DNA of 63,384 nt, counting the filler, from Asterionella formosa (taxonomy: Eukaryota): assembly GCA_002256025.1 (NCBI GenBank). It is 15 parts of 15 records of this genome, joined end to end, with 100 filler letters (N's around TTAATTAATTAA, not from the genome) between each part and the next. Parts side by side here need not be neighbours in the genome. Positions count along the whole stretch, not along the records: positions 4,246 to 8,383 come from NKIB01013682.1; 14 more parts are not named here. One strand, given 5' to 3'. Both the position numbers and the translations under genes were made by a program. The notes under the pieces are model-generated. The model was not told where the DNA came from. It made no database searches and worked only from the letters and a program-made list of their open reading frames with translations. Below are positions 1,797 through 63,384 of this stretch, piece after piece; the stretch's first letter is position 1; every line of letters begins with the position of its first letter.

Positions 1797-2357
1797 GACG
1801 ATAACAATGTACAGGGGTCAAGGTAAACGGGCCGCTGATGCTTTAAAATCAAGAATGAAACAATAATAAAAGAGAAAAGTCTGATGTTATTTTTGGCGCG
1901 CCAAGATTAAAAAGGAAGGGAGTTGGTCTGCCTCTTAGATCATACAGAAATGTTAATTTATCATTCACTTTCCTATGTTATAATCTGAGTATTTCGGCAT
2001 TATATCATAATAATACACTTCAAGTGTTTTCATTCATGTTCAAATACCTACCGGTAGTATTGATCAATACCATAGCCAAACTTGAACGTAAATACAGTAC
2101 CGAAAGGAACATAGTCGAAATGTACGGTACCCCCTGGTACCAGGGTAGTTCCTGCTTGGAAAACGGTGACGTACGAGGTCCTGTTGCTGTACTCTACTGA
2201 GCATCATGTAAGTTCCAGTATTCCTCCATCATGTAAGTACCAGTAAAATTTGATGATAGGTATATGTACCTATGATACATGGTGTCCACTGTCCACTATA
2301 TAGGATATGATAACTGGAAGTATATGGGGTACCATATTCGAATTCCTGTTAAGTATT

Positions 2358-2512
2358 GTATATTTTATCTAATCATAGTACATACTGGTAGGGTATTAAA
2401 TGTTCCTTCAAAAAAAGTACTAGACATACAGAGGTGTATGTTATACACACTTTTTGAAGAAGAGGAAATGTTGAGATTTTGTTAAAAAATTTATAACGGT
2501 AATGCCTTCTAT
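2358..2512 (+). repeat. Dispersed ~155-bp repeat, second copy at ~37036-37190
   Basis: tattttatctaatcatagtacatactggtagggtattaaatgttccttcaaaaaa...gaggaaatgttgagat is near-identical on two different contigs. Confidence 0.9.
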
Positions 2513-2574
2513 GTTATGAATCACTTACAAAAACAATTTTTCGTGCCAGGGCAAACTGCCTTGTTTCATATAAC

Positions 2575-3150
2575 CTTTTTAAAATGTCCTGCTTTAATCG
2601 ATGTAATTGTCCGTTGACACGCTTTCTGGGTCGTTTCAATTTGTCTTTCAAAAAAGACTCCAACTATCCACCAAAGAAATTAAGAGGAGATCCGAACTTC
2701 CTAATCAGATGAGGGTTATGTTTCATTCCATGAAATTTTGCAATTCGTAAGCCAATTTGAGATATCATTTCCCGTTGGGGACCAATCATACCAATCTTAG
2801 TAACTGACATAAATCTCTTTACGCTTTCCTCTAAAATATCAATACATGTTGATGTATATTGTGGTATGAATAAAGTGTCATTGATAAATACACATTACCA
2901 TAACAGCAATGTGAAATCCTTTTCTAGGTGCATGTTCTCTGAGTCCAGCCATCATTACAGCCACCCATTGAGAAAATAGTTAACAGACATAATCCGGGAA
3001 TTACTTGCCCTGACATTTTCGACAAAGCTGTCATCCCAGATCTGTATGACTACAATTTCGATTGTGAGACTCAGATGGGGATTTGTTCTTCCGAAATTTG
3101 TAGATACACAGATAACACCATTGCAATGTGCGAAAAGACATTGCAAATTG
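2575..3150 (-). mobile_element. Plavaka/CACTA-like transposase C-terminal fragment, degenerate
   Basis: Translates as GLRIAKFHGMKHNPHLIRKFGSPLNFFGG*LESFLKDKLKRPRKRV, matching the KFH...H...I..FG...N...E...K.P block of Plavaka-type transposases; homologous to 23970-24830 on the opposite strand. Confidence 0.6.
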
Positions 3151-3835
3151 CAAATGATGACCAAGTCAGGATATGAAAAGGGTAGAATAAAAATGAATTA
3201 ACATATAATAATAAATTGAGCGCTCCTTCGAACATGCTGTGCTGGTCAATACAGAGTCGTGAAATTATCACTCCACAATAGTAGTAAAAATGGAGGTATA
3301 CCGCTACATATAGCTAGTACAGCCGGCACTAATAGTAATAGTAGTATGGCCACTTCATTCAAAGATAAGACAAATGATTTCTTCTTGTCTACTCTCATCC
3401 CTAGTTACACTGACATTTCCTTCTTTCCTTGAATGAATCGATGCACTACCGCAATACATAGTTTCATTATGTATTCCAGGAACTCGATGTTTTTGCATGC
3501 AATGTCGACAGTGACCATATGCATAGAATACACGGTTGCTACAACTTCGATTATGAGACTCAGATGGGGATTTGTTCTCCCGAAATTTGTAGTTACACAG
3601 ATAACACCATTGCAATGTGCGCAAAGACATTGCAAATTGGAAATGATGACCAAGTCAGGATATGAAAAGGAAAGAATAAAAATGAAATAATATATAATAA
3701 TAAATTCAGCATAACTCCGATCATGCTGTGCTGGACAATACAGTATCGTGAAATTATCACTCCACCATAGTAGTAAAAATCGAGGTATACCGCTACATAT
3801 AGCTAGTACAGGCGGCACTAAGAATAGTAATAGTA
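3051..3835 (+). repeat. Imperfect direct duplication of ~295 bp (3051-3345 and 3540-3835)
   Basis: gagactcagatgggg...ggtataccgctacatatagctagtac occurs twice, about 489 bp apart. Confidence 0.9.
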
Positions 3836-4145
3836 AAATAGAGCAGAATCAATGTTTTCCTATCATCTATGATATGGCTTGCATTTGTAGAAGTCTCACA
3901 CTAACTATAATGATTATGTAACTACTAAGCATGCATTGGATTCTATTAGATCCATTCAAAATCAACATCGTCATCAATGTCCCGTTGATTAATGCGATCA
4001 TTATAATTAATATTCTTTTCAGGAACATTTGGTTAAAGTGATTCAACAAATTGATGCATATCCTCTTTACTTACGTTGGGAAATGAGAAGTATGAGTGTG
4101 GGTAGATGATATTTGTGGTGGGAGTAGCAATTCCACTAGGATTCC

Positions 4146-4245
4146 NNNNNNNNNNNNNNNNNNNNNNNNNNNNNNNNNNNNNNNNNNNNTTAATTAATTA
4201 ANNNNNNNNNNNNNNNNNNNNNNNNNNNNNNNNNNNNNNNNNNNN
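4146..4245. other. Artificial contig-joining spacer (44 N + TTAATTAATTAA + 44 N). The same spacer occurs at 8384, 12620, 16855, 21090, 25325, 29559, 33793, 38026, 42256, 46486, 50715, 54939 and 59162
   Basis: Identical 100-nt structure 14 times; TTAATTAATTAA places stops in all six frames; the pieces between spacers fall in length from 4145 to 4123 bp. Confidence 0.99.
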
Positions 4246-4360
4246 CTTCAGATTATGAAATAGTGGAGCAGCCTTCAGATAAATAGTTGAACAACCTTGT
4301 GATAATTAGTTGAATGAACTCCAGAATATTATGTAAACAAATTTAATACATTAACTGAGC
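4246..4360 (-). repeat. Repeat-family sequence abutting the CRN 3' end, related to ~58985-59045
   Basis: Minus strand ttaatgtattaaatttgtttacataatattctggagttcattcaacta versus ttaatgtgttaaatttgtttacgtaattttctggagctcattcaacta at ~58995. Confidence 0.7.
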
Positions 4361-6406
4361 TATTTTCATATTCGGCAATTGAATATTTGAAGGAAATAAG
4401 ATTCCTCACCTGTAAGGGCACCCCATCAGTCACCTTTAATATTTCTTTGCCGTCATTCCGTGTAGCCACTTCATTAAAGGCAAGCTTAATTTCTGCCAAA
4501 TTCATTTTGCAAGGGTGATCATACTCCACAAACCCTTGATACCTTTCCCTGAAGGCAATCTCGTTGCTTGCGGAAGCTGAAATGATGGAGACAATGCGGC
4601 TTCCCTTCAATATACTGTCGATTACACTAAAAGGAAAGGGAAGCGTACCCAGATCAACATATTTGTTTAGCTCTGGTCGAGCAAACAATCTGTTGATCTG
4701 ATCGAAAACTAGGACCCATTTCTTGTTCATATGTTGAAGAATCAAGTCAATGGCATTGACAAAAGTTTTCAGATCTCTCGAATTTTCGATATCATTTGAA
4801 CAGATCTTCCACTTGAGAGCCGGTAAGGAAGTACCAAATGATCTACAGATTGCAGTGTACAACTCGTCCACATCATTCCATTGTTGACAGTCTGGAATGA
4901 AAGTTACGAGGTACCTACAGCTGCTGTTATATTGCAGCGTACGAACCAAGTTGACAAGTGAGTGCGACTTGCCAATTCCATGCGGTCCTTTGATCATGAT
5001 TCCAGTCCGACGCTTTTTCTTGAAGGCATCTTCAACCACTTTCATCATTTCCTCTACAATTTTAGGGCGATATAAGATTCCCCTACTTTCGCAGTCGTCG
5101 AACCGCACCGGTTGGACATTTTCAATCCAGTAACTTTCAGTTGGGGAAAAAGCGGGTAAAGTAGGATCAGGAGGAGGTAAAGTAGGAGCAGAAAGAGGTA
5201 AGGTAGGGTCAGAAGGAGGTAAAGTAGGAATAGAAGGACTTTTTTTCGGATCAATCATGTAGATATGCATTGTCTTGGGAATTCTTCGCACTTGCTGATC
5301 CGCCTCCAAGCGCTTGAAATGAACGTAGAGCTTCTCCTTTATAAGAAATATTAAGGACGAGGCTTCCTCCTGGTCAAAATCTTGATTCCGCTCCTTCTTC
5401 AAGTCATCAAATTGAAGTTTGAGCCTTTCGTCTAAAACCTTTATTAAGGAGGCTTCCTTCTGCTCATCATTTTGTTTCTGGCGTTTCGTCGTTCCTTGGT
5501 CTTTTCAACAGTAGCGAGTATTTGTATGGGATAAATGATACGAAATGATACGTGAGTATTAGGAGCTGTGACCTACAATACAATAGAAGGTATTCCATGA
5601 GATCAAAACACGTACCAATATCAGGTTGGATGACCACGATCACAAACGCAGTGTCGTCGCTAGTCCCCCAATTCAGATGAACAACCGGACCTCCAGATCT
5701 CAGGGTTGGATCATCAGCTCCCTCAGAGACCGGCACTTGAGTTCCAGGTGGGTACACACGGAGCTGCGCTGAGGAAGCACCTTGAAGATTGTCACCACAT
5801 TCAATCTTCACAGCTTTCATCAAGTCAGAAATGACATCATTCTTCTTCAACGTGACATAAACTGGCAATAGTCCTGCGTTTCCACGGAACAACTGGAACC
5901 AAACCTTCATTGTTGTCGACATGATGGTTGTGGGTACCATTAAGGAGACTTCCTCCTGCTCATCATTTCGTTTCTGGCGTTTCGTCGTTCCTTGGTCTTT
6001 TCAACAGTAGCGAGTATTTGTATGGGATAAATGATACGAAATGATACGTGAGTATTAGGAGCTGTGACCTACAATACAATAGAAGGTATTCCATGAGATC
6101 AAAACACGTACCAATATCAGGTTGGATGACCACGATCACAAACGCAGTGTCGTCGCTAGTCCCCCAATTCAGATGAACAACCGGACCTCCAGATCTCAGG
6201 GTTGGATCATCAGCTCCCTCAGAGACCGGCACTTGAGTTCCAGGTGGGTACACACGGAGCTGCGCTGAGGAAACACCTTGAAGATTGTCACCACATTCAA
6301 TCTTCACAGCTTTCTTCAAGTCAGCAATGTCATCATTCTGATTCAAAGTAACTTTAAAGGGATCTAGGGCTGCGTTTCCAAGAAACAACTGGAACCAAAC
6401 CTTCAT
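4329..6406 (-). CDS. Crinkler (CRN)-type protein, 615 aa: two ubiquitin-like N-terminal domains + Pro-rich linker + P-loop NTPase. Exons 6406-6112, 5996-5616, 5500-4329; C-terminus probably truncated
   Basis: Two 115-bp phase-1 GTACGT...AAAAG introns (6111-5997, 5615-5501) join three track ORFs into one 616-codon frame; N-domain motif VWFQL...D.I.DLKKAVK......L......QLRVY; Walker A GPHGIGKS, Walker B LVFDQ, SASASNE, TDGVPL. Confidence 0.8.
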
Positions 6407-6432
6407 TGTTTTCTAACTGATGGTGGTGGGTA
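5456..6432 (-). repeat. Tandem 496-bp duplication of the CRN first exon plus its intron
   Basis: Donor sites at 6111 and 5615 and acceptors at 5997 and 5501 are exactly 496 bp apart; the two introns read identical. Confidence 0.95.
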
Positions 6433-7349
6433 CCTGGTTGGGAGTACAAGACAATGAAAGTGAGAGGAGAGGAGAAGAGAAGAGGAGAACCTTCTGTCAA
6501 TCATTCAACAAGGGTGAGGAATGTTGTGACTGATTTGAAACATCATGATACCGGTACCGGCATTCTTCTACCGGTATTTGCTTTCGTTGCTGTCATGGTA
6601 CTCTTGTCATCGTGGACTTCTACCAGTATACATAATGCACTCCGCTCATTTCCCTGGGATTTCCGGGAAAGTCCGAATATTGCGAATATTTGTCCGTAAA
6701 TATTTAATCAAACCGGTAGAATTTTTTTCCTCGTTTGGGGAGTACATTCTACCTCATCATTATAACGAGGTTAGGGTTAACATTGATATTTTACAGGGCG
6801 AAAATTCTTTCCATTGTATTGTTATCAACCATCATGCCTTGTGAATCAAGAATACCTCCTGTAGCAGATAAGTGTGTACAATATAATATAATAATAAAAT
6901 CATCATGACAAGGACAAGAGGACCATGATAAATACCTCGGTACCGTAGACTATCTTGCCGACATCACACGGTACCTGGTATGGTAACTGGCACAGTCATA
7001 TGTCGCCATATTCATATGCATTTGACCATGTTTCAGTTGGTGGTTTGGTTTGGAGGTAGGGGTGGTGATCTATGTGAGGGTTTATCATGATACCCCAGAG
7101 TAATAAATATTTTTAATTTACCGGTAGTAAGTCCCGGTATATCATGTGATTTTTACCTTGCATACTGAATACGTATGGATACTGACGACCGGTACCAGGT
7201 ACCCAGTACGATGGTATGTACACAATTTGAACAAAAGTTACCTACCAGTGCAACAACGCTCTATTGCTACATAATGAACATAACGGTAAGCAATTTTTAA
7301 ACCTCTTATCATTAGAATGCTGGAAAGCTAGCTGTATACCTGTACCGGT

Positions 7350-8383
7350 ACGCGTGTGTTTCGTCCCTACAATGGAAGACGAGTGGTACGAAGACCAATA
7401 CTGCGCATCAAGCAACGGAACGGAGCGCTGGCTTGCGGACACTGGGGCTACCACGCACATCACTAGACTGACAAATACATGACAAACGTCGAAAATGTAA
7501 ACGTCTCGGTCATTGTCGGTGACGGTAAAGAGGTGGTATGCACGAAACGAGGTGATATTCTGATTACCAACAAGACGTGTTCCATGTTACTACGCAAGGT
7601 ACTCTACACTCCTCACTTCCACAAGAATATCGTCAGCATCGGGCAATTTGTCAAGAACGGAGGGTGCGAGGCACGCATGAAGGGGTCTGAGTTGAGTCTA
7701 CATAAGGAAGGGTACGACAACGAACTAACCTTTTCTTGTGAGGATCAAGGCGTCCTTTACTACTTCAAGGGAAAACGTACCCTACAGTCCGAAACGGTCT
7801 TGTCTATTCACGACTCGACAACAAACCGTACACCTGATCCTACTCCAACGAATACCAAGACAGTGACGCAACTTCCTACGGCATAAACTACCAAGAAACC
7901 AACGCAAATTGACATCAACGAGGCCCACGACAAATACGGCCACATCAGCGAGGCATCCCTTCGCGCAACGCTAAAGTCCCTCGGTATTGAACCTACGGGC
8001 AAGATTCAGTCGTGTGAAGGCTGCGCACTAGCTAAGGCAAAGGCCAAAGCGGTACCTAAAGTCACGACCCTCAAGGCCTCTACTCCTGCTGAACGATTGT
8101 ACGTGGACATTTCAGGTCCCTACGAGAAATCTCTAATTGGAAGCAACTACTGGATTCTATTCGTGGATCAGTACACAGGCAAGGCATGGAGTTATTTTGT
8201 TAACAAGAAAAGTCTTTTGGCGAGCATCGCAGATGCCCTATTGACTACACTCAAGTCAGCGGGCTATGTAGTACGCTTCCTACGCTGGAAAATGCCGGTG
8301 AAAACATGACCAGTCTAAGTATCGTCTGCACCACGCAGGGTATTCAGATTGAGTATACTGCCCCCCATACTCCTCAACAGAAC
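7350..8383 (+). mobile_element. Ty1/Copia pol fragment (protease, pre-integrase zinc finger, integrase), disrupted
   Basis: WLADTGATTHIT; HDKYGHISE...CEGCALAK; LYVDISGP...FVDQYTGKAW; IEYTAPHTPQQN; frameshifts near 7470 and 8290 and an in-frame TAA at 7884. Confidence 0.92.
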
Positions 8384-8760
8384 NNNNNNNNNNNNNNNNN
8401 NNNNNNNNNNNNNNNNNNNNNNNNNNNTTAATTAATTAANNNNNNNNNNNNNNNNNNNNNNNNNNNNNNNNNNNNNNNNNNNNCACTTGTTGATACTTGC
8501 CCCTATGCTCCCGAGAAAATAGCAAAGAATGGCACTTTGTCGACAATTCAGATAGCCATCCAAACAAGGAGTGCTGACACTTTGAAAATCAAATCCGGTT
8601 GAATGAGCCCGAGAACATTTGCTTTAATGTTGGAAGATTTTCTGGGTTGAACCAACTACAGGTGGAGGGGTCGAGCTCAACTATTACAGCTTTATCAACC
8701 CCCAATGGCTCCGTGCCCTTAATCAACTTCAATATTATATAGATATAGATATTATTGAAT

Positions 8761-9008
8761 TGTTTCTTAGTTGGTTAGCTCACCTGAACAATTAAGGTTG
8801 GCGCAAAGTACATAGTGATACGTAGCAGTACAGTAGAGTGGTGACTAGTCATTATAGCATGCAGGCATTGGCAATAGAGTGAACGTGTCTGTTAGTTAGC
8901 AATACCGTAGTGAAAGCATGAAGTGAGTCCTCAATCTCGCTCACTCTTTTTACAATTAATCCTTTTAATAAATCTTTCCTTTTTTCCCCTTTATCTAAGT
9001 AAGTCACA
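8761..9008 (+). repeat. Possible LTR upstream of the CoDi gag
   Basis: Bounded by TG...CA, contains AATAAA, lies 340 bp 5' of a gag; no second copy in the window. Confidence 0.3.
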
Positions 9009-9349
9009 ATGTCGGAATTCACACAGCGATTTTGATTTGGTTTATTAGACCCATTGTAGGAAGCGAGAGCGATGCTAGAGGAAAGAGGATAAAGCAAGCA
9101 AAAAGGAACCAAATGGTGAATGAATTTTAGCGATGCGATGTTGCCAAAGTGTCGATATTTCCGGATACACCGGCGACGACTGGAAGCGGGCTCTGGAAGC
9201 ACATGACAACCGGATAGAGGAAGGGAATCCTTCTCGATCCCTAGCGCAGCGAGTGGCCAAAGCAAGACTGATCATCTCATCAGGCATTAGCGAAACGTGA
9301 AGCCCCTCATGCACTAACATGATATTCATATATATAACAGAACGACAAG

Positions 9350-10470
9350 ATGGCCAAAGTGCCAGTTGCTCCGATTGTGAATGAAGGTCCACCAATTATG
9401 TTGATAGGCATTGAAAAAGTACTCCAGGTGATTGGGTTTGAATCAGAAGTCGAAAGGGCCGGCATCATGCAGGCAGGGATGGGCCGATTCGAAGATTTCC
9501 GTTACCTTGTGGAGAAGGATATCCACAATATGTCGGATGAGTTTGCAAGCGTACTCAGGCAAACGGACGGATTGTCTTTGGACTAGGACGCACTAAGAAG
9601 CTGACTGGTGCTATGCATTGGGTACTACAGAACTGTCATAGAGCGAGCGACATTTCAAACCATGAAAATTTTGATGAAGAAATGATGTATGAGGCCCTCC
9701 GTTTGGCTCAAATTCGTAAATCCGACATTGAATTGGTTACCACCAACTCAAAGGCAGCTGATCCAGGAAAATTCAAGGATGAATGTAAATGGCGTGAATG
9801 GGAGAAGGCATTCATTAACTACTTATCGGTCAACCCTGGAGTAAATGGCATTCCACTGTCATATGTTGTGCAAGAGCTAGAAAACCCCACCCCAGGAACA
9901 GAGTATGCTACATTCAATGAATGGATGATCAATTGAGCATTGGTTAATGGGCAGTATTACATATCCAATAAAAGGCAAGTGCACAATCTTATGACTGCGT
10001 TCTTGCAAGGAGAGAACACTGAGAACTGGATATGCAACATTGCCAAGTACCAAGATGCCATGCATGACATGATTGCGTTGCATCGCCACTATGCTGGTGA
10101 AGGAAACAACACTAGGAGAATAGCTGATGCAAAGTGGATCCAAAATACCTTGCACTTCAAAACTGAACAAGCTCTACCATTCAACAAGTTCCTACATTCT
10201 TTACAGCAGATGTTTACCATTTTTTTCGGAAGAAAATGAACCATTAACTGAGAGAACCAAAGTCGATGAGCTTCTTTCAAAAAAGGGAACTCTGTATTAG
10301 CGGCAGCATTAGCACAACTAAGGTATCAGTTGAATACAGATGGGATCACTTTTACTGTTGCTGTTAACCATTTAAACTCTGAGATTTCTCAAACTCCGGA
10401 TTATCAAATGTCTAGAAAAATTAGTGCAGTTACTACTGGTGGCCGTCGTGGTGGTAGTGGCGGGCGAAAC
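9350..10470 (+). mobile_element. Diatom CoDi-type Copia gag, degenerate and 3'-truncated
   Basis: GRIVFGLGRTKKL...MHWV; DPGKFKDE.KWREWEKAFINYLS..PGVNGIPLSYVV; several frameshifts and TGA at 9934; ends in a Gly/Arg-rich tract. Confidence 0.8.
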
Positions 10471-11886
10471 AGTGGGTTGTTGCCCCTGAGTCAACAAGCC
10501 AGCTTTCATGTCCACTCTCTGTGACAGGGCTCATGGCTTCCAATGAATTTTTAGCAAAAACTTCCTCATCCCACATCCCTTCTGCTCCATGGCTTGTTTT
10601 GTCCATCTGGTAAATAATTTCTTTCTCATCAACTATTCCTCTGCTCTCATCTTCGTCGACATTGTCACATTCTTCCTCATCACTTGTCTCACACAAATCA
10701 GCCCAGCTCATGGTCTTTTTCTCTACTTTCTTCTTTTGGCTTTCACTTGTTGGATCTTGTTGTATTTTCTTGGTTTTCACTTATTTCTCTCATGTTATTC
10801 AAGACACTTCTCTTCTTCTTGTTACAGTCTGCAATTTCTTCCAAAAGTTCAATTGCAAATTTATTTGTCAAAATACTCTGTTTTAGCTTCTTGATTGTTC
10901 TTGACATCATCCTCCCGGATATCAGCTCCATGGATTGTCATACCAACAAACATACCAGACTCTTCCTTCTTTTGACAATCTCTTGTAATGTGTCCAAATC
11001 CACTGCAGCTGTAGCACTTCACATTTGGTTTTTCAATGTCTTTCTCTCCACTGTTGTTGCTGTTGCCATTGCTTATGCAGTCTCTTGCTCTGTGCCCTTG
11101 TCTTCCACACTTGTTGCATTTACCTTTGAAGGGTCTCCAGGCACCTTTTCCACTTGTAGTATTCAGAGCCAGTTGCTTTCCGCTTTCCTTGTTCTCTCTT
11201 TGATCTTGAATTTTGCGATTTTGACGATTTTTGAATGGCTCCACAAACATCTCATAATAGCCAATGATCTCAGCAATGAAGTCCTTATTGTCAAATCCTT
11301 TTGTACCAATATTTCCATTTAGAGTTGTAATCACTGATTCATACCTTTGTTTTGGTAGTCTTGCTAATTTGGTTGCTTGCATTTGCTCTTCGCTGTGTCT
11401 TGATCCATTTTCGCACTTTTCCACTTCTCTCTTCAATTGTTCCATTTCAACAAACAAAAGGTAGGGATCACCTATGTCTGATTTCATGTAACACTTTTCA
11501 AATTTGGTTGTTGCCTTTACCAAATCTTTTGTCTTCTTTGAGCTGTACCAGTCCTTGAGAGCTTGAAACATTTGGTATGCTGTTTCATATGATTCAATGA
11601 TTGCAAAAGTGTCACCTATGCATGACACAATAAGAAAATGCTTTGCTTCATCATCTTGTCTCACCAACTCCATCTCGTCTTTTGTCAAATCTTCTTTCTC
11701 TGCTCAACTTGGAAGAACTCCTTCTTCGATGAGTAAAACCTTCTTGTAACCCTTTGTTGCAGCAAATACCTCAGCCTTCTTGAAAAATTCTTGGGGTTCA
11801 ACTCCCCCTGTTGTAGTGTCAGTTCCATAATAGGGAATGACCTTAACTGACTCCAGGACTGTTCCAGTCTTCTTTGCTTCGCTCAT
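10470..11886 (-). mobile_element. Ty1/Copia gag-protease, degenerate, truncated just after the protease active site
   Basis: gag helix block AYQMFQALKDWY; two CCHC knuckles CNKCGRQGHRARDC and CYSCSGFGHITRDC; WLVDSGATTH; internal stops at 11704 and 10861. Confidence 0.9.
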
Positions 11887-13094: not shown

Positions 13095-16000
13095 GCAACA
13101 TAAATTTTGGGGTTATGATTACAACAATTTATGTTATTTTTATTTATCATTTTTTAGCGCATTCTTCCTATTCTATTTCTAGAGTTGCCGTAATTGCGCT
13201 CCATGGCCAGTATAAGGTGGGGAGATGGAAAGGTTGCATTTCTCTTGTCAGCCAGAGAATGGGATGATTAGTGCAGTTTGGGTTAAAGATTTCCATTTCT
13301 GCCCCACTTCTGGTGATACTCTCAATTTGAAGTCTCCATAACAATTGGTGATTCCAGGGCTTCCAACGCATTGTTTTTAAATTTTTTATCACTCAAATTA
13401 TTGCATTTTGCAGCACATCCAGCTCTGGCGCAATTTCTTCATCAGTGATTTCTTATTTCTCTGTCTTCTTCTTGATTTTTGTTGATGTTTAACATATTGC
13501 CATTCTTGTACTATTCTTCTTGCTGCACTCACTGTAGTGAAAAAGGAGTTAAACGTCTTCTTTTCTTTCTCTTGTGGCTGACTTTGCCTGGTTCTTCTTT
13601 TGTTTGCGTTTTTTTGATATCATTGCCATGGATTCCCCAACTGTGCGTAGTGTTTGTGTGAAACGCCAAATCGACATCCATGCAATTGCTGTTTTACAAC
13701 TCTCCGCCCTGCATTAATCTTTGTTTGCTTTTCCATCTCCTCCTCTTTCTGCAATCTATTTCTGTTGGATTTCATTACATGTGTGATTTGTTCTTTCTTT
13801 GCTTTGTTCGCCGCTTGGATAGCGCCTTTCGTCATGGTGAGTCGGTCTTTTTAGGAATTTTTAACTATCGGGCTCCGGAGGTCCCTGTGGCTTACGTTAC
13901 TAAATTCTGTGATCAGCACTGTAGTTCTGTGGTATGGTAGCCTTTCTTAAACTCGTCTTTATACTTGGCAAAAGAATGAAAAAATTTATGTTATAATACA
14001 CATGATACAAAAAAACTATCATCAGAGCGCGCCCACTATTATCAATCGCTATTCCTTCAATCAAATGATACTTTGGAGTGATTGCCTTTGAACGAATCCG
14101 ATCTCATTGGTTTCCCTTCAAGGGGTCCTTTCCCTCAAATGAGTTGCCAAAAATCATGGAAAAGGATGGAATGTAAATACCCCACAAAAAGAATTTTCCT
14201 GCAATTGCTGTGATCTGGAAGTGTGGCCGAATTGTGAATGGTGTCCAGGTACATACTCCGGATCACCATGATGTGTTGGAAAATTTTGCAAACATGTGTG
14301 CAACGGCTGGATGGCTAACAAAGTGTACGATGATTTATTTGCTTTATTTAAGTCCCAATCAAAGAATTGCTTAATTCTGTTCAAGGCAATATTCAAGCAC
14401 CCCAATAACAGTTGTTGTACTATGCAAAAGCAGAATACCCTGTCACCTTAGTCTAGAATGGTGGACAAAAGTACTGTATACTATGATACGAAGAATCACC
14501 TAAAAACTGAAAGTCATCCTTATTTTACCTTATATTACGACTCCAATTATTTTAGTTACATGGTAATGTTGAAGCAACTACATCGGCAAATAGAAAACAT
14601 CTTGTTCGTGTGATGCATTATATAATGACAATCATATGATCGTATACATTCGATTATTCATCTAATATGTTTAACAATTATCGTCATAGAGAATATTGTA
14701 AGTATAAATATAATGTATGTTTACTATCACACTACGAAACAAAACTCCCTATTCCCTGCCGTTTTTACAACCCTAGCGATGTTTTCTCAGAACTAGGGTT
14801 AAGCCGTGGCTGCAACCTTAACAAGACCTGCAAGTTTGATTCTCGCAGGGCATGGAATAGGTAAGTCGAACTAATCAAACGAAAAGGAGAGATCAGTGGG
14901 TCACTAAAAATAGTCTAAATTTATAATATTCAGCACACCAAGAGTAGCTGCCATGGCGCTTCGGATGGACTTCTGATATAGAAGAACATTAGAATTTACC
15001 AAATTCTTCCCTGAAAATGGTAGGTGTTTGCATCGGATTTGGTGAATTGTGCTTATTTCGCTGTCCCATCAAGATGTTGACTTTTTACAAATTTTCACAA
15101 TTTCTATTTATGACAAAAGAATATTTCATCACGGTTTTGTCAATATTTTTTAAATTGTGACATATGCAATTTGGTTGCTCAGAGCAGCCAATTTACGAAC
15201 TTCCTCAATCTAACGACTTGCTGGTAAGCGATTTTTGTGTGCGTGTGATTTTTGATATTGGATTATGGCACCTAGAAAGTGCTTACCCGCTGCACGGAAA
15301 CTGATACCCCTTATTTCTCCGGGCAGCCGAAGTTGGGAGGTTTAGCATTCAAAATTTCAGTATGAAGGTCAAAACATGCTATTAGTCACCTATTTGTACA
15401 TGTTAAGTGCTTTATGCTATGTGTATTGTGCACAGACCTCGCTGATTATTTTCAATTATCTCGCAAAATTCTAGTTTGCATGCTTCGCAGACTTTTTGCA
15501 AAGTTCGCGAAATTCACGTACTTTTTGAAAAGTGCACGCACTTGTCATTTCGTCAAAGCGAGTTTGAGGTCTGATAAGGCATTAAACATCCATGGGCAGC
15601 ACAAATTTATCTACCAGTAGCTCAGTGTAAAGGTATAATTTATCACACTGAGAGAAATTGAACAAACAGACCTTTAAAGAGCACGAAATTCACAAAAGAC
15701 CTCAACAACCGCGAAACGCAGCATAAAACCGCAAAAGAACGGGAAACCAAGATATGCGATTTTTTGTGCATTCGTCTCCGGCTTTTTATGGTCTTTTTAC
15801 GTTCTTTTGCGAAGTCCGCGTTCTTTTGCGTACACAGTATTTTGAAAGGCGTGATGTGAGGTCAATTTTAGATAAAACACAGTCTTGGTAGGTGACTTTT
15901 TGTACTTTGGAGTTTCCATCAACATTTTTATTACCCATGCATCAAAAATTTCATCATGTACTACTACCAACTGGTGTTGTTCCTAAAAAATGACTCTATG

Positions 16001-21189: not shown

Positions 21190-23917
21190 CCACCAACGCT
21201 CAGAGCTTGATCTCAAACCATATAGTGCTTTTCGGATGAGAATGATTGATCCCCTCAACTCCTCTCCAAATTCTGGTCCAGCACGGGAGTATACTAGCTC
21301 ATTAGTGTATGCATTGACGTAAGCATTTCCAACATCGCCACAAAGCAGCTTCAAGTTCTGCTTGTGTGCAATCACATGTAGCATTCTAACACTTATGCCT
21401 TTCACAGTTGAAGAGTAAATATTGTTGTCAAGTGCGTCAACTAGATGTCCGCCAGCCACAAGTCTTGCCTTGCGCCGTAGATCTTGTTTGACGTCAAAGA
21501 TCACTGTCAGTGTTGTCCATTGATATCCGACTCCAGGGTTAAAATCTGGCTTCTTAAATTCAAAACATTCCATTTTGACAAGTGAGGAGATTTCATGTTT
21601 GATTGCCTCTTGCCAGAATGTGTTTCCACTTTGCTTGTCCAATTCCATTGCATGGGTGACATTTCGTGGGACCTCAACGCCATACTTGAGAATTTGCTTC
21701 CTAATCTTAGGATGCTTCTTCTTTCTTATGTCGGCACGCCTCACTGTGTACACCTGATCACATCCATCAAAATGAAGCTCATATAACCTTGCAATTCTTC
21801 GGACAGCTCGTTTGATGTCTCGAACTATTTTCTTTGCCCATTGCATGACTCTATCCAGGCGTTTGGAACGACTGACATTATTGTCTACAATGTATTGTGC
21901 TGTCATGTTTGGATGGTCAAGCTTCAAGTCCTGAAATGATTCCCAGGAGACATTTTCAGTATCCCAGTGCACCTCCAACTCAAGTTGCCCGGCCTTCCAG
22001 CAATGCGCTCGAATATCAGTTACCCTGGAACCATTCATCTTTGTTGCCTCTGTATGCTCTTCAGCTAGCTCATTATTGATCTCATCACACATTTCAATGT
22101 CGTGTGTTGCGTCAAGTGGATCAAAGTCGAACTGAACATCATCGGTGTTGGATGGTGGATTTTTTGATATGTTGTTGTCTACTTCTGTTGTAGTGCATTG
22201 CTTGTTGTCTACTTCTGTTGTAGTGCATTGCTTGTTGTCTACTTCTGTTGTAGTGCATTGCTCCTCTTTCCCCCCCTGCTCCTCTAGACCCTTTGATGTT
22301 TCAATGATCTGAGGAGTAGGAGCAAAATGAACTAGACAAATAGGATCGTGATCCTCTGGTTCATCTAGAGGTTCAGGAATAGGACTGGTGGGAGCGTTCC
22401 TTTTGTGTTTACGATCCTTCATTTTTGTTATTCTGGCCTTGAGCGTAAGGTCACCATAAGGTACCTCATCACTGTAAGGCTCAGCTGAAGTTTCCTTTCG
22501 TGGTCGAACAATATTACAAATGAGTTCAACACCTTTTTCCCAGTTACCATCAGGACATGTCCAAATGCGATAAGTTAATGCATCTCCATGGTTCCATGCG
22601 ATACCAACAAACCTTCCTAGAAGAAAGTTTGGGTTGGGGTACTTGGCGGTTGGCTCATAGTAATAGATTGCTTGCCAGAAGGAAAATCGAAACACAGAAA
22701 TGTCTGGAGTTCTTCCGTAAAGTCTCTCAATGGGAGTCCTCCAATCCAGTCCCTTATGTGCTGAATGATTTAGGCAATCAATAACCCACATCATGCAATA
22801 GCACCAGAACGTAAGTGCTGGAGCTTTTGCCAAGCGTAGAGATAAAATAGTTCAAGATTTAATGTCTCGGATCTTGAGCTCTGCCTGGTTCTGGTTTTGG
22901 TTGTGTGTGGGACAGAATGGATTTGTTTTGTGATGTTTTCCCAGCTTGTTTTAGTCCACAATATGCCAGACTGAGTTTGAGAGTTATCAGTCAACAAAAT
23001 GTTGGGAGCTCCAACCTCACGTACAAAATCCTGGTATGCTCCATGTGAATGTGCCTCTCTAAACATACAACGTGCAAACAGAAATTGCGATGGAATATGA
23101 ATGAAGAGTTGCACACATGAGTAGTTCCGGATGGACTTGATAGATGAGAAAAATGTATCCGAATCTGTCCTGCCATCGAGTCGATTAGGATGAAGAGGAA
23201 TTAGACGCTTCTTTCGATGCTGTCTGGGTGCTTCTCTATTCTCCATTTCAACTGTCTGGGTGCAGAGCTGTGTTGTTGCTTCGAGTGTCTTCTTGGTTAC
23301 AATCTCAGTTGAATTTCCAAGACGTTTCTCCCATAGAGTTGGCTCCTCTTCAACAATGCTTCCGCGTCCCCTCCTAGATGACTGCTTCAACAACTCAGAT
23401 GAGTTGCTGGGAATTCGTGGTGTCAACCAATGAATTGTGTGGGAGTTTGCTTCTTCGATTGTAGGTAGGCAAACATTGAATGTAAGAAGTTTTTCATCAT
23501 CAGTGAACAATAGTTTAATCTGAATGTTGTCAACCTCAATGCATTGCAAACCGCTATCCCGTTCAGAAATGTCATGAACAATAACATTATTGTGCCTCAT
23601 CACATGAGTGTTGATCAGCAGCGCTTAAAGGCTGCTCCCCCCAACCCAAGTAAATAAGTTTCTTTTGTTTCTGGATGTTCATAAGCAGTGACTGCATTGA
23701 CAATTGGAAGAGTAGGTCCATCCATATTGGCCCCCCAACCATACAGTTTTGCGCTCTTGCTCACTTTTTCCAGAACTCTCCATCCAACTCCGCCAATGAC
23801 CTCAAATTCAGTTCCTCCATCAAGCACAACCCTTGCTGCTTCCCCCGGAATGCGTCCACGTCGGAGTACTGGGTTGCGACGTATACTATACTTCGAACAA
23901 AGTGCTAGATATATCAA
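21190..23917 (-). mobile_element. CoDi-type Copia pol (protease, integrase, chromo-like segment, RT), frameshifted, runs off the contig
   Basis: VVLDGGTE; TDSDTFFS...LLTDNS; GRTPDISVFRFSFW; FDVKQDLRRKARLVAGGH; GDVGNAYVNA; KALYGLRSS; Copia order INT then RT. Confidence 0.95.
22172..22262 (-). repeat. In-frame 30-bp tandem repeat, three copies (QCTTTEVDNK), in the Copia INT-RT linker
   Basis: tgttgtctacttctgttgtagtgcattgct three times. Confidence 0.95.
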
Positions 23918-23969: not shown

Positions 23970-24830
23970 TACAGATCTGGGATGACAGCTTTGTCGAAAA
24001 TGTCAGGGCAAGATGGGTTCAGAGAACATGCACCTAGAAAAGGATTTCACATTGCTGTTATGGTTATGTATATCTATCAATGACACTTTATTCATACCAC
24101 AGTATACATCAACATGTGTTGATATTTTAGAGGAAAGGGTAAAGAGAGGATTTATGTCAGTTACTAAGATTATGATTTGTCCCCAATGGGAAATGATATC
24201 TCAAATTGGGTTACGAATGGCAAAATGTCACAGAATGAAACATTACCCTCATCTGATTAGGAAGTTCGGATCTCCTTTTAATTTCTTTGGTGGATATTTG
24301 GAGTCTTTTTTGAAAGACAAATTGAAACGACCCAGTAAGCGTGTCAACGGACAATTACATCGATTAAAGCATGACATTTTAACAAGGTCATCTGAAACAA
24401 GGCAGTCTGCCTTGGCACGAAAAATTGTTTTTGTAAGTGATTCATTACATACAGAAAACAAACAAAAGAAGATGAGTAGAGAAAATACCATCAATGTAAC
24501 TGAGGGTATTTCAACAGAAATTGATTTCGAAGGAATGATTCCGGATACAATGATGTTGCCTAGTAGGTCACCTGATAATTTGGGAATGTTGCCTACTAAC
24601 AAGATCCATTCCCAAGCCCTTCCTGTTAAAGTTCAAGTCTCTGCTTTATCATCAAATGGTCTATGGACTATATCAGGTGTCCCTAATAAGATTGGGCATG
24701 TATCACAGAGTAAGGATTCACCTTTGTCTTTATTGATTCATCCTGATTTACCGAAGGGGGCCAACTACGTAAAGAGCATTGCGAATTCAGCAATAGAAAT
24801 AGCAAGAATCTTTGGAGTGTTTTTGGCGGA
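23970..24830 (+). mobile_element. Plavaka/CACTA-like transposase C-terminal fragment
   Basis: GLRMAKCHRMKHYPHLIRKFGSPFNFFGGYLESFLKDKLKRPSKRV; paralogue of 2575-3050. Confidence 0.6.
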
Positions 24831-34059: not shown

Positions 34060-34842
34060 TTAGCCATTGTGGTACTGGGGGCATGTTGAAGGCTTGAATG
34101 ATGAAAAGAGACAAATTTGACTCTCAATCCATGTAGTATAATGGCTTACTCGAGTGAATTTAATGGGTTTACCTTCTCGACCCCATCCGTCTGTAGAGGT
34201 CACAAAACCCACTTGAATATCAACCGCACTGCTGTCGCCAGCAATAAAGAGAGGTTCACCAGCTATCCCAAGACATGAATTTTTACTGGGACCATAGGAA
34301 CAGATCGTTTCTTCATCGCTAATGTTATAATGTTTCTTGCAAATGCTGTACGCCATGGCACGCTGTCTTACTTCTATCCGTTCAGATATGTTTTTATTAA
34401 ATCCATAAACAATCATTGCAGAATTATCAGCAGGCCAAGAACTGTTGTCATTTAAAATAACAATTGCAGGCAAAGCATTGTCTCTACTTGAACGAACCGA
34501 AGGAGAATTCTGGATCGTGACCAAAAGAACTGTTCCTTTCAGACTGACATTAGTAGTGGTATAGTTTCGATTCACTATAGATTTCGTTGTACCCACAGTT
34601 TGAGTATAAAAAATCTGGACGTAGCTTTTCATAAGATTATGATTCGATTTGTTGTAGCAATTAGTATAACTTAAGAACGTATCTGGCGTAATCAATGAAC
34701 CACTACAATTGTTAAACTCATTTTCTCCTTTTCGTATCATTGTTTTTTTAAAAAAAACAAATCCGTTAAGAAATTTCTTGCCTGTGGCAGTTGAGTTGAT
34801 TTTGGCAGCTCGCAACCATAGAAAGGTCAACAAGACGAGCAT
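34060..34842 (-). CDS. Trypsin-fold (S1) serine protease homologue lacking the catalytic triad
   Basis: CSGSLITPDTFLSYTNC (TAAHC position), ETICS, SCLGIAGEPLFI (GDSGGP position), QVGFVT, FTRVSHYTTWIESQIC. Confidence 0.8.
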   Translation of the reverse strand: MLVLLTFLWLRAAKINSTATGKKFLNGFVFFKKTMIRKGENEFNNCSGSLITPDTFLSYTNCYNKSNHNLMKSYVQIFYTQTVGTTKSIVNRNYTTTNVSLKGTVLLVTIQNSPSVRSSRDNALPAIVILNDNSSWPADNSAMIVYGFNKNISERIEVRQRAMAYSICKKHYNISDEETICSYGPSKNSCLGIAGEPLFIAGDSSAVDIQVGFVTSTDGWGREGKPIKFTRVSHYTTWIESQICLFSSFKPSTCPQYHNG

Positions 34843-35169
34843 AAACTAATTGGGAGGAACAATGCGAAATGGTTGGACTTAAAAAACTTTATGAAAAAAC
34901 AATCATCATTGAATTTGACGATGATGTGAAAATCGAATCTCTCTACTCTTCCTAATTTTCTCCTGGTGATGCTCTTCGCAGCATATCAGCTTGCTTATGA
35001 TTCGCTTAAGCTCGTCCCTTAGTACTTACATTCTTCATGCTGATAAATTTTCTTTTTTTGTAAACAAATAAAAATTGCAACTGATCCGAAATTTTCAGAG
35101 ATCTATGATTTTACCTTTTCTGTATCTTTTATGGCTTTTATAGTCTTGAATAACAACTGCTACTAGATT

Positions 35170-41144: not shown

Positions 41145-42255
41145 GGGTTGTTCTTATCATTTTTTTTCGTGTATCACGGAATTTGAATTTTTTTGAAAAT
41201 GTATCAGCAACGGTAACTCGATTTGAACTGAATTTCATTCATTCCAAAAGTGTCACTGTATCACTGATTTGTGATCACATTGTATCATGGAGTAACATAA
41301 ATCTTCAACGGCAACTGGCTGGCGAAGATCATGTGTATATCCCTCCGGAATATAATGATGGTCTTGATATCAAGCAACAACAAAATATAATTACCGGGAA
41401 ACTAAATATAATTTTAAAAACACACATTTGCATGAATCATGTCGTCGCCATTTGATTTACTTGATGATAATGACGATGACAGTAGTGATCTTGATTTCTT
41501 CTTCCTCTGTCATTTAGCTAAGGAAGCAGAGGAAAAAGAACACTCATCCAAACGACAAAGGCGACGCTGTAAACGGCAGCTTCAGTCATCTGAACGACGA
41601 CGACAACGAAGGCACAAGTGGCACCACGAAAGAATCTCCTGGCAATCACATGTCGAGAAACTCAATCACGAGATTGCTTTCGAGAAGACATACAGAATGT
41701 CGCACAGATCATTCAAAAAACTCACCTCCATGCTGGAAATTCAGATTGCAGGGAATTATTCCAAATGTGGCACTTCTGAGCCCATAATTCCCGAAATTGT
41801 GGTAGCCATTGGTTTGCAATGGCTGGCTGGTGGCAGTTACATCGACATTCGTCATGCCTACGGTTGTAGCATTGCTTCACTTTATCGATGTCGTGATTTG
41901 TTCATTGATGCTGTACTAAACTGTGGAGAACTCGAAATTGTTTTTCCAAAAGAAAAAGAAGAATTTATCAAATTGGCTTCCAGCTTTGAATGCAAAAGCT
42001 CAGAGGGCATGATGAGAGGATGTGTTGGTGCTATTGACGGCTTCCTAGCCACCATCAACCGCCCGACTATAGTTGAAAGTGGCAACAACCCTGGTTCATT
42101 TTTTTCCGGTCACTACATGACTTATGGAATCAATGTCCAGGCTGTTTGTGATGCTGACTCAAGATTTATTTATTTTGGTGTAATTGCACCGGGAAAATGC
42201 AGTGACCAAGTAGCTTTTGAACGAACTTCCATTTTCGATCGAGTTGCAGCATTCA
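41145..42255 (+). mobile_element. PIF/Harbinger DNA transposon, left part; transposase ORF 41439->42255
   Basis: FEKTYRMS..SF..L; AIGL.WLAGGSY.DI; GCVGAIDG; FFSGHY...GINVQAVCD; APG..SD; candidate left end TAA|GGGTTGTTCTT at 41142-41155. Confidence 0.93.
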
Positions 42256-52939: not shown

Positions 52940-53397
52940 NNNNNNNNNNNNNNNNNNNNNNNNNNNNNNNNNNNNNNNNNNNNNNNNNNNNNNNNNNNNN
53001 NNNNNNNNNNNNNNNNNNNNNNNNNNNNNNNNNNNNNNNNNNNNNNNNNNNNNNNNNNNNNNNNNNNNNNNNNNNNNNNNNNNNNNNNNNNNNNNNNNNN
53101 NNNNNNNNNNNNNNNNNNNNNNNNNNNNNNNNNNNNNNNNNNNNNNNNNNNNNNNNNNNNNNNNNNNNNNNNNNNNNNNNNNNNNNNNNNNNNNNNNNNN
53201 NNNNNNNNNNNNNNNNNNNNNNNNNNNNNNNNNNNNNNNNNNNNNNNNNNNNNNNNNNNNNNNNNNNNNNNNNNNNNNNNNNNNNNNNNNNNNNNNNNNN
53301 NNNNNNNNNNNNNNNNNNNNNNNNNNNNNNNNNNNNNNNNNNNNNNNNNNNNNNNNNNNNNNNNNNNNNNNNNNNNNNNNNNNNNNNNNNNNNNNNN
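52940..53397. other. Scaffold gap (Ns without the TTAATTAATTAA marker)
   Basis: Uninterrupted N run inside contig 13. Confidence 0.97.
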
Positions 53398-58950: not shown

Positions 58951-59535
58951 GTAATTCTGTAATTTCGTTCACATAATTCTAGAATAAAGTTCACTTAATG
59001 TGTTAAATTTGTTTACGTAATTTTCTGGAGCTCATTCAACTAAATTGAAGAGTTTCATTAATGAAATAAAGCCTGCTCATTCGGAACGGCATGCGAATGC
59101 TCCTTCACTGAAAGGGTTTGCTGCAATGTCAATTGAATGTAGAGGAAGATCAGTGTGAGTTNNNNNNNNNNNNNNNNNNNNNNNNNNNNNNNNNNNNNNN
59201 NNNNNTTAATTAATTAANNNNNNNNNNNNNNNNNNNNNNNNNNNNNNNNNNNNNNNNNNNNGAAAGTTTAAGTTTGACAACTTCCTCGTTGCTATCAATT
59301 TCATCAACTGTATTCGATTAACACAGTACTAGGTTCAAGGCCTACGATACGGTCGAATACGGTAGTTGTTACAACATTGTTTCGAGATAAAAATAAAAAT
59401 AAATTAAAACAAAAGGAACAGCCATTCACATGGAAGGCTGGAGTTTCGACATTTCAACCGAGGTTTTGAACACTTTATAGATTCGAGTAGTGCAGCTGAA
59501 GGCCGCAGCCACCAATCAAGGAACCAACGAACCCC

Positions 59536-62500: not shown

Positions 62501-63384
62501 AGGAGCGCCTATGGAAGAGACAGCGATCATTGAAGAAGCCAATCAAGAAACGGGTTCTGACAACGACTACGAGGTGGCAGATCAAGGAGCGTTGGCGGAA
62601 GAGGAACACAGACCATATAATCTCCGACAACGCCGGGCAGCCATAAGTGAACAGTTCAAGCAGGCCATTGATGCACCGCATAGCAACAAGTCATACTTTC
62701 CACCAAGACAGTTCGTACAACGCGGATTTCGAACCACGATGCCATACGCAGACGACAACACAAGTAAACATATTTTTGGGTATGTAATGAACCAGATGAC
62801 CGCGAAGGCGGGAATAAAGAAACACAGGAAAGCGGCGGAGGCCGCCCTGATGAAAGAATTCGCACAACTAGAGGAGCTGGATGTGTACGAACCCGTAAGT
62901 GCGCACTCCCTTACCAGGGAACAGAGGACAGGAGCGCTCCGAGCCATCAATCTCATCAAAGAGAAGAGAGACGGGCGCCTCAAGGGGCGTACAGTAGCCG
63001 ACAGGAGACCGCAGCGATCCCTTTATGACAAGTCGCAGACGGCATCTCCAACAGTATCCACCGATGCACTCATGTTGTCCATCATGATTGATGCACATGA
63101 AGGAAGAGATGTCGCCACAGCAGATGTGGCGGGTGCGTATTTGAAAGCAGATATGGATGATTTCGTTGTCATGAAATTCACTGGTGAATCAGTCGATATA
63201 TTATGCAACATGAACCCAGAGCACACGAATTTTGTGTCCAACGAGAAAGGAAACAAAGTGTTGTACGTCAGGCTAGTGAAAGCGATCTATGGGTGCGTCA
63301 AATCTGCCCTACTATGGTATGATTTATTCCACAACACCCTAAAAGAGATGGGTTTTGTGTTAAACCCTTACGACTCTTGCATTG
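59536..63384 (+). mobile_element. Young CoDi-type Copia gag-pol; one frame open from 59481 (first ATG 59703) to the window end, about 1230 codons
   Basis: FKGSTEGMNGNVFECYEE gag; CYNCQSQGHYAGDC; WILLDSQSTISVF; LCADFFFV...HVGEVERSIRTIKER; LKGRTVAD, SPTV, TADVAGAYL, KAIYGCVKSALLWY, NPYDSC. First and last motifs share a frame, and the ORF track reports no stop-terminated piece in it. Confidence 0.95.

Follow-up and report, generated by a model that had tools for sequence, protein, structure and literature searches.

A two-header Crinkler-type gene of Asterionella formosa is probably a rearranged, 3'-truncated paralogue of a large lineage-specific family

Does a Crinkler-type gene with two tandem ubiquitin-like (Ubl) header domains, found in a free-living freshwater alga, represent a defence or conflict system of its own? 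Crinkler/CR (Crinkler-RHS-type) proteins are known above all as effectors that oomycete and chytrid pathogens produce, and a first-pass annotation of the stretch analysed here (63,384 nucleotides (nt) of joined Asterionella formosa sequence, hereafter the window) had raised that possibility for a gene on its minus strand, running from 6406 to 4329. All positions below count along the whole window. We find that this gene lies in transposon-rich DNA and belongs, as a rearranged copy, to a family that is multicopy and prone to decay, and that the locus is probably best explained as a rearranged, 3'-truncated paralogue within a large lineage-specific Crinkler/CR-type family.

Three exons and two short introns make up the gene, which ends in a P-loop nucleoside triphosphatase (NTPase). 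The features of the gene model are as follows.

6407..6500, minus strand: 5' flank, probable 5' untranslated region (5'UTR) and promoter-proximal sequence, homologous to the region upstream of the paralogue L001
6112..6406, minus strand: exon 1, Ubl header A, 98 codons plus 1 nt, phase 1, with its ATG at 6406-6404; placed by Pfam, AlphaFold, Foldseek and RNA contigs
5997..6111, minus strand: intron 1, 115 bp, GT..AG, phase 1; marked by an RNA-only skip joint and a dip in RNA depth
5616..5996, minus strand: exon 2, 381 nt, made up of the linker start, 28 nt of former 5'UTR and Ubl header B; an RNA contig from run X14 crosses the unit junction within it
5501..5615, minus strand: intron 2, 115 bp, GT..AG, phase 1; placed by sequence and a dip in RNA depth
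4329..5500, minus strand: exon 3, helical linker, PTLP repeats, STAND/ORC-like P-loop NTPase and an 11-codon foreign tail; placed by the AAA_22 match and alignments
5139..5243, minus strand: 21-bp repeat in four copies encoding the PTLPxxx heptads, from repeat analysis; copy number differs between paralogues
4965..4988, minus strand: Walker A motif GPHGIGKS, intact; G, K and S are nearly invariant in alignment A3 of 36 relatives
4698..4718, minus strand: Walker B motif WVLVFDQ, intact; W, F, D and Q are nearly invariant in alignment A3

Joined by coordinates, the exons give 1848 nt, that is 615 codons and a stop (TAA, 4331-4329), with no internal stop codon. The splicing of three open reading frames through two 115-bp introns into a single 615-residue frame, as the first-pass annotation had put forward, is borne out by this joining and by the skip seen in RNA. 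The two introns are letter-identical to each other. In the protein, header A occupies residues 1-98, and a connector of 29 residues leads to header B, behind which come a charged helical linker, four PTLPxxx heptads and the P-loop NTPase; the proposed layout of two Ubl headers, four PTLP repeats and a P-loop NTPase likewise holds, on the evidence of the sequence, Pfam and AlphaFold/Foldseek. Upstream of the ATG, a CT-rich stretch and ...GGTACCCACCACCATCAGTTAGAAAACA are common to the window gene and L001. Our confidence in this anatomical account of the locus is high.

Support for splicing came from contigs of one DNA run (X1) and three RNA runs (X14, X2 and X3), which were aligned to 4246-6900. 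X14 is polyA RNA from the same sample as X1, X2 and X3 are lake metatranscriptomes from another study, and the runs containing the sequence are labelled as algae, lake-water or freshwater metagenomes. A 115-bp GT..AG skip was present in all three RNA runs (one contig each) and absent from the DNA run; its joint was placed at 5500/5616 in X2 and X3 and at 5996/6112 in X14. Depth in X14 was 79 and 198 in the intron bins, compared to ~1,900-9,500 in adjacent exon bins, and DNA depth in X1 showed no drop over the introns. The shorter side of each splice joint measures 27 nt, exactly the stretch common to the starts of exons 2 and 3, and the joints therefore prove the removal of this type of intron and not the pairing of particular exons. 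Thus, of the spliced reads predicted at 6112/5996 and 5616/5500, the removal of the 115-bp intron type in RNA stands, and the exon pairing is ambiguous. The predicted database proteins P0021 and P0022 contain the spliced junction ...QPDIDQG.... Overall, one mRNA carrying both headers is likely.

The RNA contigs also cover the parts of the gene that set it apart. Header A is covered by X2 records 23 and 24 without a difference, and the window-specific 3' end by X2 record 17 (4306-4425, 2 differences). At the 5' end, RNA depth is present in bin 6382-6470 and zero in 6471-6559, contig data that mark no firm transcription start. Two other RNA joints, one skipping 90 positions (5369/5460) and one skipping 586 (5362/5949), were rejected as introns: their ends are CT..TT and CT..GA, and they match the canonical sequence of L001. 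Paralogues that differ in the variable patch would account for an X3 joint that goes back 474 positions (6361/5888, with 22 foreign letters) and for an X1 loose end at 6361.

The second header lies within a local tandem duplication, and a smaller duplication is found in the linker.

5443..6434, minus strand: two tandem 496-bp units, 6434-5939 (unit A) and 5938-5443 (unit B), each comprising a header exon with its intron, preceded by the 28 nt ahead of the ATG and followed by the linker start
5359..5478, minus strand: 90-bp internal duplication of the linker helix, giving 30 extra residues relative to P0021 and L001

Units A and B differ at 27 of 496 positions. Header codons 1-45 account for 19 of these, the 28-nt stretch ahead of the ATG for five and the first 58 nt of the linker for three; header codons 46-98 and the intron are free of differences. 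Over their 3' 400 nt the units are 99% identical. Fifteen header codons differ, and the encoded residue is changed in 11 of them. Only unit A keeps the long CT-rich upstream region that is also seen in L001; unit B keeps just 28 nt of it, and exon 2 therefore looks like an internal exon rather than a second first exon. Those 28 nt of former 5'UTR are now coding within exon 2. Copies of a motif encoding NDEQ(E/K)EAS bound both the 90-bp and the 496-bp duplication (copy spacing 90 and 496), and this shared bounding motif points to unequal recombination among repeats or paralogues.

At its other end, the gene departs abruptly from its relatives.

4306..4367, minus strand: breakpoint (4363/4362) and foreign 3' end, from alignments and RNA loose ends

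Relatives of 570-620 residues align to about two-thirds of exon 3 and then run on for ~250 residues. The window copy follows the family to ...FKYSIAEYE, where relatives continue with (K)GELCSILFSLGKL..., and then reads NSSVNVLNLFT and stops, 11 codons after the break (...YE/NSSVNVLNLFT-stop versus ...YEK/GELCSILFS in the family). At 4363, the loose ends of RNA contigs from X14, X2 and X3 encode the canonical GELCSILFS (compared with P0032), and thus derive from full-length paralogues. When six relatives were compared with the window by tblastn, coverage extended only up to the 4344-4392 region, and the C-terminal part of the family was not found downstream of it. The replacing sequence (4306-4367) is 87% identical to 58982-59043, which lies ~440 nt upstream of a long copia open reading frame.

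What the window copy lacks is conserved elsewhere. The ~250 C-terminal residues, comprising a helical and a nuclease-like part, are conserved across the 36 aligned relatives and are present in the full-length relatives P0005, P0008, P0032 and L001. The C-terminal family domain spans ~160 residues with conserved E427, D489, Q502 and H504 (P0005 numbering, alignment A3), and in the model of P0005 its elements follow an alpha-beta-beta-beta-alpha-beta order. From these residues (E...D...QxH) and this secondary-structure order, we read the domain as putatively restriction-endonuclease-like; the classical restriction-endonuclease active site follows a PD-(D/E)xK pattern. The Foldseek and VIA-align lists for the whole P0005 model were filled by the NTPase. 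The CR-type unit of NTPase plus restriction endonuclease that had been expected at the locus is not there, as the window copy leaves the family alignment at 4363 and stops shortly after; without the C-terminal domain, it cannot act as a nuclease.

The NTPase itself is retained. In exon 3 it matched Pfam AAA_22 (E 7.8e-7, 29.9 bits, above the cut-off of 27). Weak Pfam matches of the window protein were to NACHT, nSTAND_NTPase5, ATPase_2 and AAA_16, all the STAND ones falling below their cut-offs, and NCBIfam gave weak orc1/cdc6 matches. Structural comparisons of the NTPase were made with a model of the relative P0005 (578 residues, the first sequence of the profile-search query alignment) and not of the window protein. 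This model, built with the 36 relatives of alignment A3, reached a predicted local distance difference test (pLDDT) value of 84.5 and a predicted template modelling (pTM) score of 0.84. Foldseek placed CED-4 (E 4e-7), ORC/Cdc6, Avs3 and Apaf-1 on top, with E about 1e-6, and VIA-align gave Z 12.1 to 2qen and 11.8 to 2fna (archaeal ATPases) and ~11 to plant NLRs, Avs3 and mS29; the VIA-align matches extend over 250-290 residues and span model residues 30-391. In the protein atlas, the NTPase fell into generic AAA/STAND clusters, the first being a small eukaryotic cluster with a recorded phylum for two members; the copia frame of the window received no taxon there. Taken together, the Walker A and B motifs, the AAA_22 match and the modelled fold of the relative identify a predicted STAND/ORC-Cdc6-like AAA+ domain. 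After the NTPase core the family carries a GGVPL motif, which we take to resemble the GLPL motif of NB-ARC. A repeat-type sensor domain was absent from the Pfam matches of the window protein and the 36 relatives (25 of 62 families for the relatives).

At the N-terminus, header A matched PF20147, the Pfam Crinkler N-terminal domain, with E 6.7e-5 and 24.0 bits, just below the 24.6 cut-off; header B gave no Pfam match at E<=1. An alignment combined both headers of the window gene with 27 relatives that phmmer retrieved from 1.84 billion representatives, and 13 of its 29 sequences matched PF20147 at E<=0.01, the best at 3.7e-7. The AlphaFold model of the header (pLDDT 82.3, pTM 0.74) has a beta-beta-alpha-beta...beta order, with strands at residues 2-9, 12-20, 50-53 and 89-93 and a helix at 27-37. 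Foldseek against the PDB returned ISG15, the parkin Ubl, ubiquitin, NEDD8 and the hHR23B Ubl on top, with template modelling (TM) scores of 0.5-0.6, and all 50 entries listed are ubiquitin-like proteins or complexes containing one. The beta-grasp fold suggested earlier for residues 1-98 is supported by this model and these matches, and the header is probably a Crinkler-type domain, of predicted beta-grasp fold.

The literal LxLFLAK motif was not found in the header; strand 3 reads AQLRVYPPG, and its position and hydrophobic pattern fit. According to PMC5289972, oomycete CRNs carry LxLFLAK on strand 3, where the motif is structural for the Ubl, and an HVLVxxP motif at the end of the header is a recombination hot spot. 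The last header strand of the window gene, AFVIVVIQP, falls exactly at the exon boundary, resembles this end motif and may be its equivalent. In the 186-residue protein P0129, the first 27-30 residues are identical to header A and the remainder is unrelated, which could reflect a chimeric gene call or a shuffled part of the header.

Close copies with a visible N-terminus comprise the window copy, L001, L003, P0021 and P0022, and two headers occur in the window copy only. The double header is thus not a feature of the family, as each of the other four has one. When longer proteins were searched with exon 2, P0021 and P0022 were the only matches, both single-header (weak evidence). L001, a metagenome locus 80% identical to the window gene, has 700 codons in one header exon and one large exon, with an intron of 123 nt between them. 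This intron (L001 786-910) lacks the AG used in the window, and the frame is preserved by the next AG, which lies 6 nt further downstream; without splicing, the L001 frame is also open through the intron (743 codons). L001 holds a second tandem copy that is internally deleted, and L003 has one header and an internal deletion. The metagenome scan for the family yielded three loci.

Header multiplication does occur in more distant proteins. A phmmer search with header A gave 42 proteins, among them five true relatives with several header stretches by phmmer and Pfam: P0127 with two (PF20147 47.6 bits), P0133 and P0150 with two each, P0145 with three and P0125 with eight. In P0133 (858 residues), the two header stretches stand ahead of an NTPase-like region (PF20147 E 1.3e-6). 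The eight header-like Ubl repeats of P0125 (1094 residues) and the three of P0145 (388 residues) each end in ...YVIVA, and those of P0125 come after an unrelated N-terminal region. P0130, P0137 and P0154 were rejected as tandem-header proteins because they are unrelated repeat proteins. Judged from these sequences, multiplied headers are not unique to the window locus. We found no description of multiplied Crinkler-type headers in the literature covered, which did not extend to the CR survey of Zhang et al. 2016.

A profile search recovered 143 relatives. Among the 120 listed, the only organism-named eukaryotes are Amphora coffeaeformis and Attheya sp., and no oomycete CRN appears. Both diatom proteins (P0163 and P0164) start at the linker helix, without a header, and are 33-35% identical to P0005. 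They make a diatom origin of the window sequence plausible. A scan of viral contigs with the family profile gave 74 pattern matches, none of which was confirmed.

These results fit the following sequence of events. The canonical gene consists of a Ubl header exon of 96-98 codons, a phase-1 intron and one large second exon encoding the helical linker, the PTLP repeats, the STAND/ORC-like NTPase, a helical region and the C-terminal domain of ~160 residues. Unequal recombination at the NDEQ(E/K)EAS-encoding motif would have created both duplications, the one of 496 bp that spans header exon and intron and the one of 90 bp in the linker. Given that the duplicated exon is 381 nt long and that both introns are phase 1, the frame is kept and two tandem headers are expected. 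A second event would have put repeat-derived sequence, with its early stop, in place of all that follows the NTPase core, from 4363 on. In the full-length family, a nucleotide-dependent STAND-like switch may control the nuclease effector, as is proposed for CR proteins in PMC5289972, and the Ubl header may serve in targeting or in the binding of partners. In an alga that lives freely, host infection is a less likely setting for such proteins than selfish spread or conflict, be it within the cell or between organisms.

Other explanations of the locus were weighed against this one. It is unlikely that the gene encodes an intact and working CR protein with two headers that forms, in its own right, an uncharacterised system of defence or conflict. 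Its 615-codon frame is open, both header exons occur in RNA and the NTPase motifs are intact, and P0133 demonstrates that two tandem headers can precede an NTPase-like region. However, the conserved C-terminal residues are missing and the tail is repeat-derived, the four close relatives with a visible N-terminus are single-header, and so were the only two proteins found with exon 2. The proposal of such a system is therefore not borne out; the locus holds a rearranged member of a multicopy family among transposon fragments and decayed copies. We consider it very unlikely that the 496-bp duplication is an assembly artefact produced from collapsed or mis-joined paralogues. The family is highly repeated (DNA run X1 gave 6519 contig records on 2.7 kb at a likeness of at least 90%, and 1996 of the 6519 fit two places), and the 3' parts of the units are nearly identical. 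Yet the 27 differences between the units form a non-random pattern, and the short motif at the junction also bounds the 90-bp duplication, in keeping with unequal recombination. In addition, an independent RNA contig, X14 record 16 (5855-5995, 0 differences, unitig depth 605; summed intron-bin depth 79-198), crosses the unit junction 5938/5939, which is thus not an assembler product. The possibility of an artefact had been raised from the outset, and with differing units and a contig across the junction the duplication proves real.

It could also be that exon 2 is a cassette that is alternatively skipped or included, yielding header A alone or A plus B, and that the differences at codons 9-31 give the two headers different partners. 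The introns are identical and of the same phase, so skipping keeps the frame; 19 of the 27 unit differences fall in header codons 1-45, most of the differing codons (11/15) change the residue, the headers of the paralogues P0021 and P0121 are mosaics of the A and B versions, and the spliced contigs are compatible with either join. These contigs give no direct sign of skipping, however, and cannot tell the joins apart; the mosaics are equally well explained by gene conversion among many paralogues, and truncation of the copy makes selection for header diversity here doubtful. We regard this explanation as quite improbable.

The rearranged, truncated paralogue thus remains our preferred explanation, and several observations weigh against it. 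The retained part of the gene is undecayed: 615 codons contain no stop or frameshift, both Walker motifs are intact, and the four A3 residues that are invariant and precede the break (F263, H268, E276 and P301, P0005 numbering) are all kept. Given this lack of decay and the RNA on the window-specific 3' end, the truncated form may be expressed and used. The transposon origin of the replacing sequence is drawn from one 62-nt match, and the C-terminal family domain had no match in Pfam, NCBIfam, PADLOC or PDB sequence searches. The RNA contigs come from mixed communities with many paralogues, and exact matches could stem from a near-identical copy. Finally, with regard to exons 1, 2 and 3 residing on one mRNA, the spliced contigs stop where exons 2 and 3 are still identical. 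The window copy is most likely a young, still-transcribed and decaying gene. A less probable alternative is a truncated regulator or decoy whose NTPase would let it associate with full-length paralogues, a role for which the open frame, the intact NTPase motifs and the RNA on the specific 3' end leave room. Our confidence in any function of this copy is low.

The surroundings of the gene within the window are rich in transposon reading frames, with one further trace of the family.

14111..14461, plus strand: decayed fragment of the C-terminal domain, separate from the gene; by tblastn it matches the final ~119 residues of P0032 (56% identity) and is interrupted by 2 in-frame stops
7467-7886 (plus strand), 10864-11703 (minus strand), 21190-22851 (minus strand) and 41436-42255 (plus strand): transposon open reading frames (copia Pol_BBD, gag with zinc knuckle, RVT_2, DDE_Tnp_4), from Pfam
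59481-63383, plus strand: copia pol frame, open for 1301 codons and running off the window end, in a region of 52% G+C, from Pfam
34060-34845, minus strand: trypsin-like serine protease frame (PF00089, E 1.9e-9), the sole Pfam match in the window that is neither transposon nor CR

The C-terminal fragment lies on the opposite strand, ~8 kb from the gene in the window. A Pfam scan of 62 of the 89 listed window frames of at least 90 codons found only transposon domains and the one trypsin, none of the listed frames proved to be a conserved host gene, and Rfam gave no match in the window at gathering thresholds. Other repeats, just downstream of the gene, include a dispersed, inverted one (2510-2943, with its partner at 24019-24451, 93% identity) and a local tandem repeat of ~490 bp (3050-3343 and 3539-3835, 91% identity). 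Pairs of 44-N runs separated by 12 bases recur every ~4235 bp (for example 4146-4189 with 4202-4245 and 8384-8427 with 8440-8483), and one run of 458 N lies at 52940-53397; the regular spacing suggests masking rather than assembly gaps. One of these pairs lies 84 bases downstream of the gene stop and hides part of the 3' flank.

At the level of the locus, the significance of these findings is modest: the copy is truncated and was rearranged recently, and its second header arose by duplication of an exon in place. The family is of wider interest as an expanded, expressed group of proteins in a freshwater alga that combine a Ubl header, a STAND-like NTPase and a putative nuclease-like domain, with the header as a separate exon, and it lends itself to studying how such modular genes of conflict are assembled and reshuffled. 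A tentative idea, and an improbable one on present evidence, is that the header is a self-contained exon cassette that can be added, exchanged and amplified in tandem, and that arrays of it may diversify targeting in an algal conflict system. This idea arises because the diatom NTPase relatives have no header, this lineage has one, the window locus has two, and other eukaryotic proteins have two, three or eight; the phase-1 intron at the cassette boundary falls exactly at the HVLVxxP-like end-of-header strand. If header cassettes are alternatively spliced, or if the hypervariable patch at codons 9-31 sets partner specificity, the two-header copy could be a decoy or regulator of nuclease-bearing paralogues. 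Among the titles and abstracts of the papers listed, we found no description of a Crinkler-like family in diatoms, although the survey of Zhang et al. 2016 may cover one. A Coscinodiscus preprint assigned the Crinklers found there to an oomycete parasite.

How does the gene compare with known systems? Its two head-to-tail beta-grasp domains recall ISG15 and polyubiquitin, and ISG15 is the top Foldseek match (TM 0.57, E 6.3e-4). The likeness is one of fold only, at ~16% identity: the 29-residue linker between the window headers derives from former 5'UTR and linker sequence, and the headers lack the C-terminal di-glycine that ubiquitin-like conjugation requires. With the STAND/ORC-Cdc6 group (CED-4, Apaf-1, plant NLRs, Avs3, 2qen/2fna and mS29/DAP3), the family shares the fold of the NTPase plus helical region, as predicted in the P0005 model. 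In contrast to STAND NTPases of that kind, no LRR, TPR or WD40 sensor was seen, and the effector would be the C-terminal nuclease-like domain, which the window copy has lost.

A closer parallel is AACRNL, a Crinkler-like gene of free-living animals that PMC12957317 describes as a selfish element amplified with neighbouring transposons. Like the window family, it is a Crinkler-type gene in a non-pathogen, multicopy and transposon-associated, with parts that are degenerating. It differs in having an ADP-ribosyltransferase effector and a degenerating Ubl, whereas the window Ubl is intact and doubled and the effector end is lost. The transposon association of the window family is one of sequence context.

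The nearest known systems are the CR proteins themselves. Their C-terminal effector module is most often an NTPase with a helix-turn-helix and a restriction endonuclease, as PMC5289972 states in its account of Zhang et al. 2016, and they have been reported in free-living eukaryotes, as noted in PMC5289972 and PMC12957317. The window gene shares with them a Ubl header near PF20147 with a predicted beta-grasp fold, followed by a P-loop NTPase; it is multicopy and lies among transposons, its protein has no signal peptide, and its full-length relatives add helical and putative nuclease-like domains. Strand 3 of its header (...QLRVYPPG) sits where PMC5289972 places LxLFLAK. On the other hand, the host is a free-living freshwater alga rather than an oomycete or chytrid pathogen, the window header is a separate exon, the window protein has two headers and no nuclease domain, and the putative active site of the family is E...D...QxH and not PD-(D/E)xK. 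Crinkler/CR-type proteins are a known kind, and the two-header layout at this locus is a rearrangement within that kind and not a new system.

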